UHGV virus genome: UHGV-1364111
DNA: 40,203 nt
Direction: 5' to 3' (one strand)
Source: a virus
The translations under genes and the position numbers were made by a program. The stretch's first letter is position 1, and each line of letters begins with the position of its first letter. Under the pieces are notes generated by a model, which saw only the letters and a program-made list of their open reading frames with translations, did no database searches and was not told the DNA's origin. Shown one piece after another: positions 2,821 to 28,463 of the stretch.

Positions 2821-2863
2821 TTGACTAAATCCTCACATGATTATACTGTTTAAATGTACAGTA
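2821..2863 (+). promoter_or_regulatory. sigma70-like promoter with embedded LexA (SOS) box
   Basis: TTGACT (2821-2826), 17-bp spacer, then TACTGT. A perfect CTGT-N8-ACAG box TACTGTTTAAATGTACAGTA (2844-2863) sits 20 bp upstream of the 2884 start codon. An 8-bp inverted repeat CCTCACAT/ATGTGAGG (2831-2838 and 2869-2876) flanks the box and includes the SD. Confidence 0.6.
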
Positions 2864-2883
2864 TTTTTATGTGAGGTTCCATT

Positions 2884-3213
2884 ATGGGCTTTCCATCTCC
2901 GGCAAAAGACTACGCAGAATCACGCCTTACCATCACCAGCATGTGCGGCTACGACGGAAACTGTCGAACCGTTGAGACGTCGGCTGGTTACGCAATCATC
3001 AACGTCGCAAATAAACCACATCCGGGCGATACCGTGCTGATTTCGTATTGCGGCCGCACGGAGTTCGCCATCGTGCAGGGGCGGGCGCTTATTGTTCCGG
3101 AGGGGGAGTACATCGAAGGTGAAGCGCTGGACGACACAACGGTGCTGGGAGTGGTTACACATTTCCTCAACCGTGCCGGCAGCCAGGAAGACGATCCGAT
3201 ACCAGTCATGTAA
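2884..3213 (+). CDS. UmuD'-like (pre-cleaved S24 peptidase-fold) protein lacking catalytic Ser/Lys
   Basis: MGFPSPAKDYAESRLTIT aligns with UmuD residues 25 onward (GFPSPAADYVEQRIDLN), i.e. exactly the UmuD' N-terminus. The C-terminus ...LGVVTHFLNRAG aligns with FGVVIHVVKAM. The SGDSM serine and the Lys of the dyad are replaced (ITSMCGYDG and VQGRAL). Confidence 0.55.
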   Translation: MGFPSPAKDYAESRLTITSMCGYDGNCRTVETSAGYAIINVANKPHPGDTVLISYCGRTEFAIVQGRALIVPEGEYIEGEALDDTTVLGVVTHFLNRAGSQEDDPIPVM

Positions 3214-23017: not shown

Positions 23018-23040
23018 GGCCGCGCGTGCGGCCTTTGATT
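23018..23040. terminator. GC-rich hairpin terminator between convergent genes
   Basis: GGCCGC-gcgt-GCGGCC followed by TTTGATTT on the plus strand. Also closes the minus-strand 86-aa gene. Confidence 0.5.
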
Positions 23041-23300
23041 TATGTCGTTTCCTGCTTCAACTTTTCTACGCAGTAATCAAGATGCATTTGCAGATCTTTC
23101 ATGGACATCTGCGAGCTGGTGACATAGTTAACCAGAGCAGTCAGCTCAGCCATAGGACCATCAACGTTAAAACCATCCTCACCAAGCTGGCGCAGCAACG
23201 TCATCAGGTGAGAATCTTCAACAAGGGAGCGGACGCCTCCCGGCGTGTGTATTCGTTCGGCAAATCCTTTTTCCAGCGGGTGATGATACTGACGTTGCAT
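23040..23300 (-). CDS. LexA-controlled small protein, candidate antirepressor (86 aa from the ATG with a GGAG RBS; ORF track lists 23318)
   Basis: Minus-strand ORF MQRQYHHPLEKGFAERIHTPGG.... Its 5' region carries a near-consensus SOS box. Function inferred from context only. Confidence 0.4.
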   Translation of the reverse strand: MQRQYHHPLEKGFAERIHTPGGVRSLVEDSHLMTLLRQLGEDGFNVDGPMAELTALVNYVTSSQMSMKDLQMHLDYCVEKLKQETT

Positions 23301-23319: not shown

Positions 23320-23339
23320 CACTGTATATATGTACAGTA
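23320..23339. promoter_or_regulatory. LexA (SOS) box CACTGTATATATGTACAGTA
   Basis: CTGT-N8-ACAG with an AT-rich spacer. Matches the consensus TACTGTATATATATACAGTA at 18 of 20 positions. Overlaps a putative -10 TACTGT of the minus-strand promoter. Confidence 0.6.
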
Positions 23340-23391: not shown

Positions 23392-23495
23392 TAACTTTTC
23401 TGATTGTTATTCATTCAATTCATATAAGGTTTGCCAGGTAATAAACTGTCCTGATGATGCACGCGCGACGGGCGCTGCTTAACTGGAGACAGGCC

Positions 23496-25664
23496 ATGAC
23501 GGTATCAACCGTAGTTGACCATAACGATTACACCGGGAACGGCGTTACGACATCCTTCCCGTATACCTTCCGCATTTTCAAGAAAACAGATCTCGCTGTA
23601 TCAGTTGTCGACCTGAGCGAAAACATCACGGTGCTGGTACTTGACACGGACTATACAGTTACGAACGCCGGTGGTTACAATGGCGGTAGTGTGGTGCTGA
23701 CCACTCCGCTTGCGAATGGCTGGCAGATCTCAATTTCTCGTGAACTTGAGCCAACACAGGAAACCGACCTTCGCAACCAGGGTAAGTTCTTCGCTGAAGT
23801 GCATGAAGATGCCTTTGACAAGCTGACTATGCTGATCCAACAGGTCGCCAGCATGTTTCGTCTGGCATTGCGTAAACCGTCCAGTATCGCGAACTGGTAC
23901 GATGCCCTGAATAACTACATCCGCAACCTGAAGGACCCCAGAGACCCGCAGGATGCGGCCACGAAAAACTATGTCGATACGCTGGCAAATAGCAATTTCA
24001 CACGAACCCTGCGCGTCCCGGAGCCTATTCCACAGCTTCCAGACGCGGTAACACGCGCAAACAAAATCATTGCATTCGACAGCGCAGGAAACCCGATTGT
24101 TGTATTGCCTCCTTCTGGTTCAGCTTCTGATGTTTTTATTGAGCTGGCAAAACCTACCGGGGCAACGAAAATTGGGACCAACCACAGGGGGTTACTGTCA
24201 TCAGATCTTGATGCTATAGATCGCAGGCCTAGTGGGTATGGAGATTCCATCTCAGCAGTTCTCTCAAATGGCCAGGACGTAGAAATCGAAAAAACATATT
24301 TACGTTCGAGCCCAATATTGCCAACAGACTACCAGCTTATCGATGGCAAAGGCGGGAATCTGCAAATGTCAGCGATTGCACGAGCCATATCTGTAGTAAG
24401 CAAAAAAGGGGTTACTATCAGGAATATACGTTCTGTTGGAACGGTTGTTAACGGTCCTTCTACCGGAAACGTAGCTTATGGCGTGGTTGCTGAAGACAGC
24501 ACAAATTTGAAAATTTACGGCGTTGATGCTAGCAAATTTTCAGGTGCAATTGAGCTGCTACGGTGCACGGAATTCGTTATTCGGGATGTATATGCGAGAA
24601 ACGAAAGGTATCATTCAGATGTGGCAGCTGGCGGTTACGGTGTTTTATTGGAAGGTTGTCAGAGGGGTGTTGTTGACGGAATTAATTTCCTGGCAAGTGC
24701 TTCTGATGGTGACCTTGGCAGGCATGCTTTATATATATCTGTCGATTCATCTGGCAATTTCTGTGAAGACATAATGGTAAGTAACCTCATCGCCAGATAC
24801 GTCAATATAGACAACCGTGATATGCCAGCTGCGGTAGTTAGAAGATCAAACAGATGTGCCATTGATGGTTTTAATATAAACGGTTCAAACAATGGCATTG
24901 GTCTAAATGCTTCTAACGGAACGATACAGGATTTTCAGATCAGAAATGGTCATATGAAAATCTTCCAGTATGACGATAACGCTGTTTACGGTGTATCAGG
25001 TGGAGTGGATAACACCCCAGCAACAGTTATCGGGCTTCGTGTTGATAATGTTACAGTTGAGTTGGAAGTAAAAACTGGCGTCACTCCGACAACGGTAAGG
25101 CTTCATGCCTTAAATGTCACATGCCGGGATAGTCAGTTCTCAAACCTCAGGTTTAAAAGCCATGGTTCTTCAAATCCAATACTGATTGCGGCTGGGGCTT
25201 TCAACCTGCTTATTGATGGGGTTGAAGATTTTGTTACTGCCGGTAGTGCTTCAACATCTGCCCTGATAAGATTCCAGGGTAGTAACAGCAACATTAGTGT
25301 TCTGAATGTGAAAACTGCTCGAGCAGTTTTTGTTGGCCTGGATAACGTCACCGATCTTACAGTTAACTGGGAAAGGTTCGCTCGCGTTGTAAGTGCCAAC
25401 GGCACGGTAACAACAACAGACACAGACTCACTGATCAATACCGTATCTGCAACTGGTACCGGTGAGTTAACTGTTTCATTCAAACCACATGTTACCTCTG
25501 ATGCGGTGAGAAAATGCACAGTTACTCCTGCAAGTGTCGCAGGTTTGGTGATTCTTCCTGAAGTATCAGGTAAAAAACTGATACTTAGATTCTATAACGG
25601 GAGTGGCGTACTTGTGCCATTGGGCTCATCTATCGTTAGTGCTGACATAAGGTTACACTCATAG
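23496..25664 (+). CDS. tailspike protein: T7 gp17-like N-terminal adaptor plus beta-helix depolymerase-like body
   Basis: ATG at 23496 with GGAGACAGG RBS (ORF track lists 23454). N-terminus MTVSTVVDHNDYTGNGVTTSFPYTF...VLDTDY...GW parallels T7 gp17 MANVIKTVLTYQLDGSNRDFNIPFEY...INTDY...AW. Remainder is Asn/Gly/Val-rich repetitive (NGSNNGIGLNASNGTIQDF), typical of a right-handed beta-helix. Confidence 0.7.
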   Translation: MTVSTVVDHNDYTGNGVTTSFPYTFRIFKKTDLAVSVVDLSENITVLVLDTDYTVTNAGGYNGGSVVLTTPLANGWQISISRELEPTQETDLRNQGKFFAEVHEDAFDKLTMLIQQVASMFRLALRKPSSIANWYDALNNYIRNLKDPRDPQDAATKNYVDTLANSNFTRTLRVPEPIPQLPDAVTRANKIIAFDSAGNPIVVLPPSGSASDVFIELAKPTGATKIGTNHRGLLSSDLDAIDRRPSGYGDSISAVLSNGQDVEIEKTYLRSSPILPTDYQLIDGKGGNLQMSAIARAISVVSKKGVTIRNIRSVGTVVNGPSTGNVAYGVVAEDSTNLKIYGVDASKFSGAIELLRCTEFVIRDVYARNERYHSDVAAGGYGVLLEGCQRGVVDGINFLASASDGDLGRHALYISVDSSGNFCEDIMVSNLIARYVNIDNRDMPAAVVRRSNRCAIDGFNINGSNNGIGLNASNGTIQDFQIRNGHMKIFQYDDNAVYGVSGGVDNTPATVIGLRVDNVTVELEVKTGVTPTTVRLHALNVTCRDSQFSNLRFKSHGSSNPILIAAGAFNLLIDGVEDFVTAGSASTSALIRFQGSNSNISVLNVKTARAVFVGLDNVTDLTVNWERFARVVSANGTVTTTDTDSLINTVSATGTGELTVSFKPHVTSDAVRKCTVTPASVAGLVILPEVSGKKLILRFYNGSGVLVPLGSSIVSADIRLHS

Positions 25665-25693: not shown

Positions 25694-27175
25694 TTATTTT
25701 AAAATCCTAAATCCCATTTCATCGTTTAATCGATAAATCATGATCAGCCTGTCAGAATAAACAACGGTGCTGGAATTCATCCTCTTATCCCTGTCCCAAA
25801 AGTCTTGTCCTGTTGGTGGGGATGAGACGATGCCGTATTGCTTCATGAGGCTGTGTTTGAATCTTCCATTTGCAAAAGAGGAGTAAACAAAGTCCTTGAG
25901 GAATGGTCTGGCTGAAAGTGATCTGTCCACGCTTGGTGGGTATGAAGGCCCACCAAAGATATAAACCTTCATGCCCTTCTTGTAACCATTCTCATAAAGT
26001 TTTTCTGCTGCATAGGACGCGACAAATCTATCAAGCCTTTGCATGTCATTTACAACACCAGACACTGTAGATGACAACGAGAATGAGCAAAGCACTAAAG
26101 TAATCGGTAATATCATCTTTAACCTGAATGGGTATTTATCCAGCAACCAGCAAAAATAAATTAATACGAACCCAAAGGCGATCATGACGCGGGAGGATGC
26201 GACTGGATTTTGCAAGATAAGCATTATCCCAGCCGTTAATGAGAAAAGCGCTACTGGGGTGATTGTGATCACAATTAATGATGGTAAGTTTAGTCCGCGC
26301 CTTTTTGACAGGAAGCCTCCAAGAACAATAGATGCAGACATAACCAACCAAGTGACAACACCATTGAATCCCTTCATCGCATCTCTGAATATGGCATAGA
26401 AGTTACTTGAATTCTCTCCGATCCGTTTAATGCCATTCATATCGAAAGACACCAGGCTTTCGTGGCTCTGAGTATACTCACTTAGGGATATAACATGCTT
26501 CACACATAGTTTATAAAGTACTGCGGAAATAATCAGTGAAATAGCGCACCTTATAACATAAGGGGCCTGCTTTTTGACATGCTCTCCAGAATATAAATTA
26601 GAGCATATTATCAATAACATCGTTGAGAATATGACGTTAACTGATGCCTGGTATGTAGTAAAAACCACAAATCCTAATGCTACACCCCAAAAATATCTCT
26701 TTGGTCCGGAGTTTAAAAGAACAATTGAAAAACAAACAGCAGACAATGCAGAGAGACCCATGATGAATGAGTCATGTCTGAATAGCATGTTCCCGATCCA
26801 AAAAGGACTTGTTAGAAGAGAAATCGATGAAATTGCAACAAGAACATTTGAACGTATAGAAATCCTCTCTACGACAATCAATGCAGCAAGAACAATGCAA
26901 AATGTTGACGCTATCAAAGTGAATGGGAAAGTGTCCAGCAGAACCCCGTCACCAAAGAACCTGAATCCAGACGTGCTGAGGGAGAACAGCCACATAATCA
27001 CACTGGCAAGTGGCCTAGCGTTATCCTCCCAGGCTGTAACTCCAGTATCAGATCTAAGCCAGTCATCAATAATGTAATTTTCATGAATGATAAATGGTAA
27101 AATATAAATCAATGACATGAAAGCTACTGCCGCCAATGCCCACCGATAATTCCATAAAAAAGATTTGCTAATCAT
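25694..27175 (-). CDS. gtrC: GtrC-like serotype-specific O-antigen glucosyltransferase (polytopic membrane protein)
   Basis: 493 aa with many hydrophobic helices and a C-terminal soluble domain. Third gene of a gtrA-gtrB-gtrC arrangement, ATGA-coupled to gtrB. Confidence 0.6.
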
Positions 27176-28092
27176 TGTTTTTTGCCTTTCAGTACATATC
27201 GAGGTCTATTCTTAACTTCAACATAAATCCTGCCTATATACTCACCCAAGACTCCAATCCCGATCAGCTGTATGCCGCCAAGGAAAAGAATGGAGACGAG
27301 GAGGGATGGGTAACCTCGCACAGCATTACCAAAGGCGAGAGTGTCTATAATCATCCACGCTCCATAAAGGAAAGCCACGCCGGCAACCAGTAAGCCTATG
27401 TAGGTCCACATGCGAAGAGGGAAGGTTGAAAAGCTCGTGATCCCCTCAAGGGCAAGGTTCCATAGCTTCCAGCCGTTGAATTTCGTGCTTCCTGCCACAC
27501 GTTCTGCGCGAGCATATTCAACAACATCAGTATTGCCGCCAACCCAGCTCAGGACGCCCTTCATAAACAAGTTACGCTCTGGCATGAGCTTAATGTTTTC
27601 CACCACCTGGCGAGACATCAGGCGGAAATCACCAACGTTTTCCTCGATCTGTGGGTTACTGATTTTATTATGCAGCTTATAGAACCACTCAGCGGTCTTG
27701 CGCTTCAATCTGCCATCTGTAGAGCGATCAGAGCGTTTAGCCAGAACCATATCAGCACCGGCCTGCCATTTCTCGATAAGGTGAGGAATAACTTCGATAG
27801 GGTCCTGCAAGTCTACGTCGATCGGGATAATCGCTTCACCGGACGCGTGATCAAGGCCGGCGAACAGAGCTGGCTCTTTACCAAAGTTACGAGTGAACGA
27901 CAACGGCACAACAAGCGGGTCTGCAACAGCAAGTGCGTTAATAATTGATTCTGTCGCGTCTTTGCTACCGTCATTTATGAAGACTATCTCGACTTCATGC
28001 TGCTGAAGGCCTTCAAATTCACGAACGGTTTTATAGAAGATAGGAATTGCTTCTTCTTCATTAAATACCGGAACGACCAGAGAAATTTTCAT
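27172..28092 (-). CDS. gtrB: bactoprenol glucosyltransferase GtrB (GT2 family)
   Basis: [17 protein letters not shown]...INDGSKDAT...: GT2 DxD/DGS motifs, two C-terminal TM helices, 306 aa. ATGA-coupled to gtrA. Confidence 0.85.
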
Positions 28093-28463
28093 TTCGCATC
28101 CCTAAAGACAATGAACTTTGAATAGATGAACCCGCACACCAGACTGATGGCAGAAAAAAGAATGAGAGTTACGATCGGAGCCATGCCAGACTTATCAGCG
28201 CACCATCCAACAATCGCACTCAGTGAGCCCATGAACCCAACATAAAGCATGTAACGCATGGTTGTAGTGGAAGACTTGAACGTGAACCTGGCGTTTGCAA
28301 AGAAGCTGAATGACACCGCCACGACGAACCCGGCAAAGTTGCCAAGTGCCTGTCCAGTGTGAAACGCATAAATGCAAATAGCGAACACAACCCAGTGAAT
28401 GAGAGTGTTTATAACGCCGATCGATGTGTACTTTGCGAATAACTTAAGCACTTTTACGTCCAT
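28089..28463 (-). CDS. gtrA: GtrA-family bactoprenol-glucose flippase
   Basis: 124 aa, four TM helices, [19 protein letters not shown]... typical of the GtrA family. First gene of the operon. Confidence 0.8.

Follow-up and report, generated by a model that had tools for sequence, protein, structure and literature searches.

In Escherichia coli, UmuD′ is a subunit of DNA polymerase V (Pol V; PDB 1UMU/1AY9) that arises by self-cleavage of UmuD at Cys24-Gly25, a reaction stimulated by RecA in its activated form (RecA*). The umuD operon is LexA-regulated and includes umuC. Bacteriophage P1 encodes a homologue, HumD, that is born without the pro-segment (its product starts MGFPSPA), has an annotated LexA site 39 nucleotides (nt) 5′ of its start and is accompanied by no adjacent umuC. 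HumD reportedly binds RecA filaments, an observation attributed to the work of McLenigan in 1999. According to the GenBank record of P1, HumD functionally complements E. coli UmuD′, and the study of McLenigan et al. 1999 is cited in PMC11541004. The present analysis concerns a gene that resembles humD in all of these architectural respects and is carried by UHGV-1364111, a virus genome of 40,203 nt that is referred to below as the window. Its product, here called mini-HumD, is encoded in processed form, whereas UmuD′ has to be generated by cleavage, and the gene is an orphan, whereas umuD is accompanied by umuC. A first-pass annotation of the DNA had read the locus as encoding a LexA-box-controlled, born-processed, catalytically dead and orphan look-alike of UmuD′; end-to-end profile matches and a predicted box that is conserved across the family bear out this core reading.

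A divergent member of the UmuD′/HumD lineage

2884-3213, plus strand: coding sequence, stop codon included, of a 109-residue minimal HumD/UmuD′-like protein (open reading frame and profiles)

The gene starts with an ATG at 2884, its stop codon ends at 3213, and the product begins MGFPSPAKDYAESR (MGFPSPAKDY…). Searches with the single sequence are nearly blind: in Pfam no family is matched at E <= 10, Peptidase_S24 (PF00717) included, and in the PDB phmmer detects a UmuD-like stretch over the first 21 residues only (E 0.24). A family alignment of 28 sequences, extending down to 49% identity, was therefore needed. The profile derived from this alignment matches UmuD/UmuD′ in the PDB from end to end (E 2.5e-6 and 8.6e-6), and profile-profile comparison with hhalign relates the family to UmuD at 96% probability and to P1 HumD at 98.4% (E 7.7e-15), in the latter case over the full length of both. 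Consistent with this, the only PHROGs matched are UmuD-like, foremost phrog_3469 ‘UmuD-like protein’ (4.8e-43), and the NCBIfam equivalog model for HumD, NF051876, is hit with 37 bits (E 2.8e-9), residues 1-109 of the product aligning with 1-129 of the model. The AlphaFold2 model of the protein displays the S24 β-barrel and finds its best fold match in UmuD′. The kinship with S24/UmuD proteins that the first-pass annotation had supposed is thus recovered by both profile and fold searches. Judged by sequence and model, the protein is a divergent but real member of the UmuD′/HumD lineage with a predicted S24 β-barrel, and by its sequence it is closer to HumD than to UmuD.

The differences from HumD are nonetheless considerable. 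HumD comprises 129 residues and has Ser60 and Lys97; the window protein, at 109 residues, is devoid of the Ser loop and has Ala at the Lys position. Furthermore, P1 HumD and gp26 of phage N15 match Pfam Peptidase_S24 (36 bits, against a cutoff of 23.3), whereas the window protein does not.

The family is sizeable, comprising 340 clusters at 50% identity (E <= 1e-3), and its members occur in Enterobacteriaceae and Erwiniaceae prophages (from Enterobacter, Klebsiella, Citrobacter, E. coli, Pantoea and Erwinia). Ratios of nonsynonymous to synonymous substitution rates (dN/dS) relative to the window gene range from 0.13 to 0.24, which indicates that the gene is maintained by purifying selection. 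In the 28-sequence alignment, to which all statements on invariance below refer, 15 positions are invariant and 13 near-invariant.

Features that have been retained or acquired

2884-2925, plus strand: N-terminal arm MGFPSPAKDYAESR, equivalent to UmuD′ Gly25-Arg37
3100-3135, plus strand: family-specific acidic loop EGEYIEGEALDD, with the family consensus DGEAIEGEALDD (DGEAIEGE)
3178-3210, plus strand: disordered acidic C-terminal tail GSQEDDPIPVM (model confidence and C-termini of the family)

The arm is the most conserved part of the protein: no variation occurs at M1, F3, P4, S5, P6 and D9, and almost none at G2, A7, Y10 and E12. It shares the pattern GFPSPAxDYxExR with E. coli UmuD′ and aligns with UmuD residues 25-37, in agreement with the match to the N-terminus of cleaved UmuD that had been noticed at first reading. 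The reading frame opens at the residue preceding the Gly (M-G-F-P-S-P-A), a starting point shared by 27 of the 28 aligned members, and as it starts at the arm, no pro-segment with a cleavable (Ala/Cys)-Gly site is found in the window protein. A Met preceding Gly is normally removed by methionine aminopeptidase, so that the mature N-terminus would equal Gly25 of UmuD′. The arm is of functional interest: in an in-silico, AlphaFold-based model of Pol V, the arm of one UmuD′ protomer inserts beside the active site of UmuC (PMC11791011), and experiments cited in that article indicate that armless UmuD′ is defective in mutagenesis.

The acidic loop, in which G74, E75 and E78 are invariant and G79 is near-invariant, has no counterpart in the aligned sequences of UmuD or HumD and is the property of the mini family. 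The tail is shared more widely, as P1 HumD and N15 gp26 also end in an acidic stretch (…EFDDCPVI/L), whereas UmuD has none. In the window protein the tail is predicted to be disordered, with predicted local distance difference test (pLDDT) values below 50 at residues 99-101 and 103-109. Among 102 full-length members of the family, 92 terminate in Pro followed by one or two hydrophobic residues, and in 91 this ending is immediately preceded by an acidic residue. This arrangement recalls the C-terminal tip of SSB (the protein that binds single-stranded DNA), whose motif is DDDIPF (PMC5872125). The likeness is partial: the sequence is DDPIPVM here and DDDIPIM or EFDDCPVI in relatives, D[DE]DIP occurs in 5 and a PF end in 3 of the 102 members, and most tails end in P-V-I/M.

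Features that have been lost

2986-2991, plus strand: junction Gly35-Tyr36, at which the S24 active-site loop is missing (gap relative to UmuD, HumD and N15 gp26)
3067-3069, plus strand: codon of Ala62, at the position of the UmuD general base Lys97 (alignments)

All alignments with UmuD, HumD and N15 gp26 place a gap of 11-12 residues at this junction, removing UmuD D59-D70, a stretch that includes the nucleophile Ser60. The general base Lys97 aligns with Ala62 in three alignments, an Ala that hardly varies among the members of the family. Nor does the family have a conserved Ser or Lys elsewhere that could replace Ser60 or Lys97. The protein is therefore, as deduced from these alignments, catalytically dead by deletion plus substitution. 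The first-pass annotation had both catalytic residues substituted; this holds for the Lys, whereas the Ser has been deleted. Compared with UmuD′, then, the window protein is without the catalytic dyad and has an acidic tail in addition. The born-processed homologues form a series in this respect, since both Ser and Lys persist in HumD, Thr stands at the Ser position in N15 gp26 and neither residue is left in the mini family, which is consistent with relaxed constraint on a protease site that is no longer used.

Two relatives have unusual architectures. In one (P0103; L170 2958-3383), the loop-deleted body is preceded by a UmuD-like pro-segment with a Cys-Gly site (…FIRPAELREIIALTLFSDSMQCGFTSPA…); this copy lies in a non-phage context, lacks a LexA box, has a degraded C-terminus and is probably recombinant or decaying. 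Another (P0133) resembles a fusion of mini-HumD with the 79-residue partner protein described below.

The loss extends to residues with which UmuD and UmuD′ contact other proteins. A study combining cryo-electron microscopy and mutagenesis has defined the contacts between RecA and UmuD and established that Y52, V54, F94, D91 and E93 are needed for RecA-mediated cleavage (PMC9926225), and the contacts of UmuD′ with the C-terminus of UmuC have been proposed in the in-silico Pol V model (PMC11791011). Mapped in the hhalign register against UmuD, these positions correspond as follows:

UmuD Tyr52 (RecA L2-loop pocket): Thr29 in the window protein
UmuD Val54 (RecA L2-loop pocket): Glu31
UmuD Phe94 (RecA L2-loop pocket): Thr59
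UmuD Asp91 (acidic patch facing RecA): Cys56
UmuD Glu93 (acidic patch facing RecA; modelled contact of the UmuC C-terminus): Arg58
UmuD Ser60 (nucleophile; modelled contact of the UmuC C-terminus): deleted
UmuD Thr95 (modelled contact of the UmuC C-terminus): Glu60
UmuD Lys97 (general base; modelled contact of the UmuC C-terminus): Ala62

HumD keeps the RecA-contact residues or has conservative substitutes, whereas the window protein has lost them.

A predicted SOS operator within the promoter

2821-2826, plus strand: TTGACT, -35-like hexamer belonging to the gene's own promoter (read from the sequence; promoters of homologues)
2844-2863, no strand assigned: predicted LexA (SOS) box TACTGTTTAAATGTACAGTA, 20 base pairs (bp) (motif search and conservation)
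2844-2849: left half of the box, TACTGT, presumed -10 element
2873-2876, plus strand: Shine-Dalgarno sequence GAGG
2831-2876, plus strand: extended inverted repeat (or RNA hairpin) around the LexA box, with the Shine-Dalgarno sequence in its 3′ arm (RNA folding)

The predicted LexA box lies 40 nt 5′ of the 109-codon frame and 17 bp downstream of TTGACT. It agrees with the consensus TACTG(TA)5CAGTA at 17 of 20 positions and has CTGT-N8-ACAG intact. Only two CTGT-N8-ACAG sites exist in the whole 40.2-kilobase (kb) window, this one and another at 23320-23339, and a search with the 20-mer consensus allowing <=3 mismatches returns the same two sites, against 0 matches in 100 shuffles. A generic promoter scan calls no promoter at 2821-2863, because its rule demands >=4/6 matches in the -10 element and TACTGT agrees with TATAAT at only 3/6. 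Comparison with homologues is more informative: in 37 of the 43 distinct promoters of single-gene loci and in 20 of the 21 promoters of the operon form described below, a -35-like hexamer (TTGACx/TTGATC) precedes TACTGT by 16-17 bp. This conserved spacing marks the left half of the box as the -10, and the half-site is presumed to serve in both capacities, so that the overlap of a LexA box with the -10 of a TTGACT promoter, proposed from the window alone, stands. From the predicted operator we infer that the gene is under LexA control.

The conservation of the operator was assessed in two sets of loci, one consisting of viral contigs (80 loci with 75 distinct upstream regions) and the other of 80 genome loci, one genome per species. 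A strict LexA box is situated 38-44 nt before the start in 46 of the 75 distinct viral loci and about 280 nt 5′ of the gene, ahead of a 79-codon reading frame, in a further 25. Together with two relaxed boxes (CTG-N10-CAG), the 71 strict ones bring the loci with an operator to 73 of 75. In the genome set, a CTG-N10-CAG box at either typical distance is present in 72 of the 80 loci. Four viral loci (L071, L073, L074 and L079) have the operator TACTGTATATAAAAACAGTA approximately 276-280 nt 5′ of the mini-HumD gene, identical to the operator of E. coli umuD (and sbmC) as given in PMC3009722.

The hairpin around the box has a predicted folding energy of -28.1 kcal/mol (z = -5.35). Among the 47 distinct upstream regions of the set compared for this feature (L003-L085), the Shine-Dalgarno sequence is predicted to pair with sequence 5′ of the box in 43, P1 humD included, even though the sequences of the arms differ. 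The longest complementary run between the flanks of a box averages 8.1 for cognate and 5.7 for non-cognate pairs. We infer that the hairpin may occlude the Shine-Dalgarno sequence in read-through RNA, leaving only the LexA-controlled transcript to be translated.

Gene neighbourhood across the family

The proposal that no umuC partner lies near the gene holds well beyond its vicinity. By tblastn no UmuC homologue is encoded anywhere in the window, whose large open reading frames, where scanned against PHROGs, all matched other families, nor is any found within ±6 kb of the gene in the 80 viral loci or within ±3 kb in the 80 genome loci. A weak tblastn match to UmuC in one viral locus (L023) is explained by a cytosine methyltransferase.

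The gene does have a recurrent companion in many relatives. In the operon form, mini-HumD is the second gene after a translationally coupled reading frame for a 79-residue protein (phrog_3893), both placed under LexA by the predicted box. This partner occurs in 27 of the 80 viral and 56 of the 80 genome loci, while the window phage is without it. In phage mEp390 it is unannotated (L062 5762-5998), and it is recognisable by the motif MPRxSDI…NWHFS…ANxWIERY…. No relative of the partner was found in Pfam, NCBIfam, PADLOC or the PDB, and it shows no similarity to the antirepressor Ant of SPC32H type or to the presumed GfoA reading frame of Gifsy-1.

A second neighbour is a homologue of dinI, which diverges from the shared LexA-box region in 17 of the 27 viral operon-form loci and in one single-gene locus, hence in 18 of the 80 viral loci. 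An example is the following:

L083 3409-3675, minus strand: dinI homologue, divergent from the operon of the 79-codon frame and mini-HumD

Together, dinI and this operon make up a compact SOS module; it is situated in the moron region, with the tail-fibre genes on one side and the phage attachment site attP on the other. The dinI adjacency is suggestive, but it is not specific to a role with RecA or Pol V, because antirepressors, too, are encoded in the LexA-controlled dinI operons of Gifsy phages (PMC3121763).

The lambdoid slot after the tail-fibre gene is filled differently from phage to phage, with a full umuDC operon in PHB10, the orphan humD-type gene for gp26 in N15 and the dinI/79-codon frame/mini-HumD module in mEp390. 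The umuD-umuC operon of Escherichia phage PHB10 is complete and is located at L088 2501-4191, after cor and the tail-fibre gene.

The carrier phage and its own induction circuit

The window is the complete genome of an epsilon15-like (Uetakevirus) temperate podophage and shares 94.5% identity with Enterobacter phage BUCT554. The mini-HumD gene is flanked by the last early-right gene (2468-2806, a phrog_536 regulator) and by the small terminase gene, which starts at about 3270. The relatives epsilon15 and SPC32H are without the gene, which identifies it as an accessory (moron) insertion. Elsewhere in the window the following features are relevant to induction:

23320-23339: second predicted LexA box, 39 nt 5′ of the ant gene (motif search)
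23040-23300, minus strand: ant gene, 86 codons, product with 80% identity to SPC32H Ant, an annotated antirepressor
36066-36656, minus strand: homologue of the repressor Rep, 45% identical to SPC32H Rep

Translation of ant probably begins at the second ATG (MQRQYHH…), although the reading-frame tool listed the first. The Rep homologue consists of helix-turn-helix (HTH) domains only and has no S24 domain. SPC32H is said to be SOS-inducible through Ant, a finding attributed to Kim and Ryu in 2013. As homologues of Ant and Rep are both present, the LexA→Ant→Rep circuit of the relatives appears to be already in place in the window phage, and mini-HumD is a second, separate gene under predicted SOS control.

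Other features of the window are these:

23454-25664: tailspike gene
25694-28463, minus strand: O-antigen conversion module with GtrC-like and GtrB-like products, as assigned from the reading frames other than the third (28089-28463), downstream of the tailspike gene
37392-38726, plus strand: 444-codon reading frame in the early-right region, matching phrog_424 ‘phosphoadenosine phosphosulfate reductase’

In contrast to SPC32H, which carries a tRNA-Arg gene, the window yielded no tRNA genes.

Possible functions

The reading that is preferred here, albeit tentatively, is that mini-HumD is a ready-made, SOS-induced surrogate or modulator of UmuD′ that acts on host UmuC/Pol V. In its favour, the P1 record states that the relative HumD complements UmuD′, a role reported from experiments in 1999; UmuC would be the partner and activation the presumed direction of the effect. 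The variety of immunity systems among the carriers, which include Rep/Ant in the window phage and a CI of S24 type in mEp390, also points to a target in the host. In a lysogen, host LexA bound to the box that doubles as the -10 would keep the gene off. Upon DNA damage LexA would be cleaved and transcription would start from the gene's own promoter, presumably around 2855-2857, yielding a transcript that would lack the 5′ arm of the hairpin (2831-2840) and leave the ribosome-binding site free. Once Met is removed, the product would start GFPSPA…, like UmuD′ processed with the aid of RecA, and the activation step would be unnecessary; with no self-cleavage needed, the protease loop, the catalytic Lys and the residues that dock into the RecA groove could have been lost. 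The most likely target would be the translesion polymerase subunit UmuC of the host, reached through the conserved arm of UmuD′ type. The benefit would presumably be a UmuD′ surrogate at the onset of the SOS response and hence earlier bypass of lesions on the damaged genome of the induced phage.

Several observations weigh against so simple a substitution. The 37-bit match to the HumD equivalog is far below its curated cutoff of 120 and Pfam detects no S24 domain, while the confidence of the AlphaFold2 model is moderate (pLDDT 73). All UmuD′ residues modelled to hold the C-terminus of UmuC differ (Ser60, Glu93, Thr95 and Lys97), and those that bind the RecA L2 loop and the basic patch are not kept either (Tyr52, Val54, Phe94, Asp91 and Glu93). 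To judge from the alignment, the family has an invariant acidic loop of its own, and a co-transcribed 79-residue partner in 56 of 80 genomes hints at a function beyond simple replacement of UmuD′.

It is possible, though doubtful, that mini-HumD has been repurposed as an SOS-induced decoy or adaptor and is not a working UmuD′. According to this proposal, the arm would plug UmuC near its active site, the surfaces for RecA and the UmuC C-terminus would have been shed, and the invariant acidic loop and the partly SSB-tip-like tail would have been gained, with phrog_3893 as a dedicated partner in most genomes; temperate phages would thereby switch off or redirect error-prone synthesis of the host during induction, with the hairpin as an extra regulatory layer.

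A dominant-negative modulator, which is slightly more doubtful and on balance unlikely, would employ the arm or form heterodimers with UmuD/UmuD′ and so block or retune Pol V, acting as an anti-mutator or releasing the cell from the UmuD2C-dependent slow-down of replication and protecting the replicating phage genome. Conservation of the arm alongside loss of the modelled UmuC-C-terminus and RecA contacts, the invariant family-specific loop and the tail, the dedicated 79-residue partner and the score well under the HumD cutoff would all be compatible with such a role, as would the LexA-box region shared with divergent dinI at the 18 loci mentioned above. On the other hand, the annotation of HumD, the closest relative that has been characterised, speaks of complementation of UmuD′ and not of inhibition. 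The mutagenesis function of UmuD′ reportedly survives loss of the catalytic Ser, a result ascribed to Nohmi et al. in 1988, which also counts against this reading. DinI binds RecA filaments (PMC9926225), yet its gene is not a pathway-specific neighbour, given the antirepressors in the dinI operons of Gifsy (PMC3121763).

It is improbable that mini-HumD occupies the RecA* groove in the manner of UmuD, LexA or DinI and tunes co-protease activity, for instance the induction of rival prophages whose repressors can be cleaved. Its fold is that of RecA-groove binders, HumD reportedly binds RecA filaments and dinI is a neighbour at some loci, but Y52, V54, F94, D91 and E93 have become T29, E31, T59, C56 and R58, with one reversal of charge, where HumD keeps these residues or replaces them conservatively.

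The role of an antirepressor or decoy, in which the dead S24 domain would pair with the S24 C-terminal domain of a repressor from the same or a co-resident phage and inactivate it, fares marginally worse and is the least likely of those suggested in the first-pass annotation. Enterobacterial prophages do commonly encode small LexA-controlled antirepressors at sites other than the immunity region, and these can act in trans on other phages (PMC3121763). The window phage, however, already has an Ant of SPC32H type (80% identity) with its own LexA box and a Rep (45%) built of HTH domains, with no S24 domain to pair with. SPC32H has Ant, Rep and the LexA box at ant, yet is without a mini-HumD gene; the family occurs with unrelated types of repressor; and strict conservation of the UmuD′ arm would be left unexplained. 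Nor does the sequence of mini-HumD resemble that of Ant or of the presumed GfoA reading frame of Gifsy-1.

Finally, a functionless, decaying remnant of a humD or umuD gene is scarcely credible: the catalytic loop is lost, Pfam finds no match and some relatives look degraded (P0103, and truncated reading frames in L042 and L047), but dN/dS of 0.13-0.24, 15 invariant and 13 near-invariant positions, 340 clusters and the conserved operator, -35 element and hairpin all speak against decay.

Whichever way it acts, the mini family amounts to a natural minimal UmuD′, composed of arm and β-barrel without the protease loop or RecA-docking residues. If Pol V is still supported, as the surrogate reading has it, the family would define the parts of UmuD′ that are needed for mutagenesis, and lysogens of clinically important Enterobacterales could become mutable sooner after exposure to DNA-damaging antibiotics. 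If Pol V is blocked instead, mini-HumD would be a natural anti-mutator.

Comparison with known systems

Mini-HumD resembles HumD, N15 gp26 and the homologues of phiKO2, HK639 and HK140 in sharing an MGFPSPA start without the pro-segment, a LexA box some 40 nt 5′ of the start, the lack of an adjacent umuC, the predicted S24 β-barrel and an acidic tail ending in P-V-I/L/M, and differs from HumD in the DGEAIEGE loop, which is peculiar to the mini family. Other inactive proteins of the S24/S26 fold, such as the C-terminal domain of phage 186 CI and SipA of Streptococcus pyogenes, have other partners and contexts and possess neither an arm of UmuD′ type nor LexA control. The antirepressors SPC32H Ant, Gifsy GfoA/GftA, 186 Tum and N15 AntC are alike in being small, encoded outside the immunity region and expressed from promoters overlapped by a LexA box, and a spacing of ∼39-40 nt between box and ATG is common to the mini-HumD gene and the ant gene of the window phage itself; LexA-controlled prophage antirepressors are nevertheless unrelated to mini-HumD in sequence and fold. 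The modulators of DinI/PsiB type are likewise accessory proteins of phages and plasmids that are small, acidic and linked to SOS, but DinI has an unrelated fold and acts on RecA filaments, whereas the residues with which UmuD contacts RecA are not kept in the window protein.

A UmuD′ of phage origin that is LexA-controlled, born-processed and orphan is not a new idea, as P1 HumD (1999) already embodies it. What appears to be undescribed is the minimised subfamily, which has dispensed with the protease loop and the catalytic Lys, has lost the contacts for RecA and the UmuC tail, and combines an acidic loop with a frequent partner reading frame and an operator set within a hairpin in which the Shine-Dalgarno sequence is paired. 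As orphan UmuD′ homologues of phages have been known since HumD, the family extends known biology and does not constitute a new kind of system.

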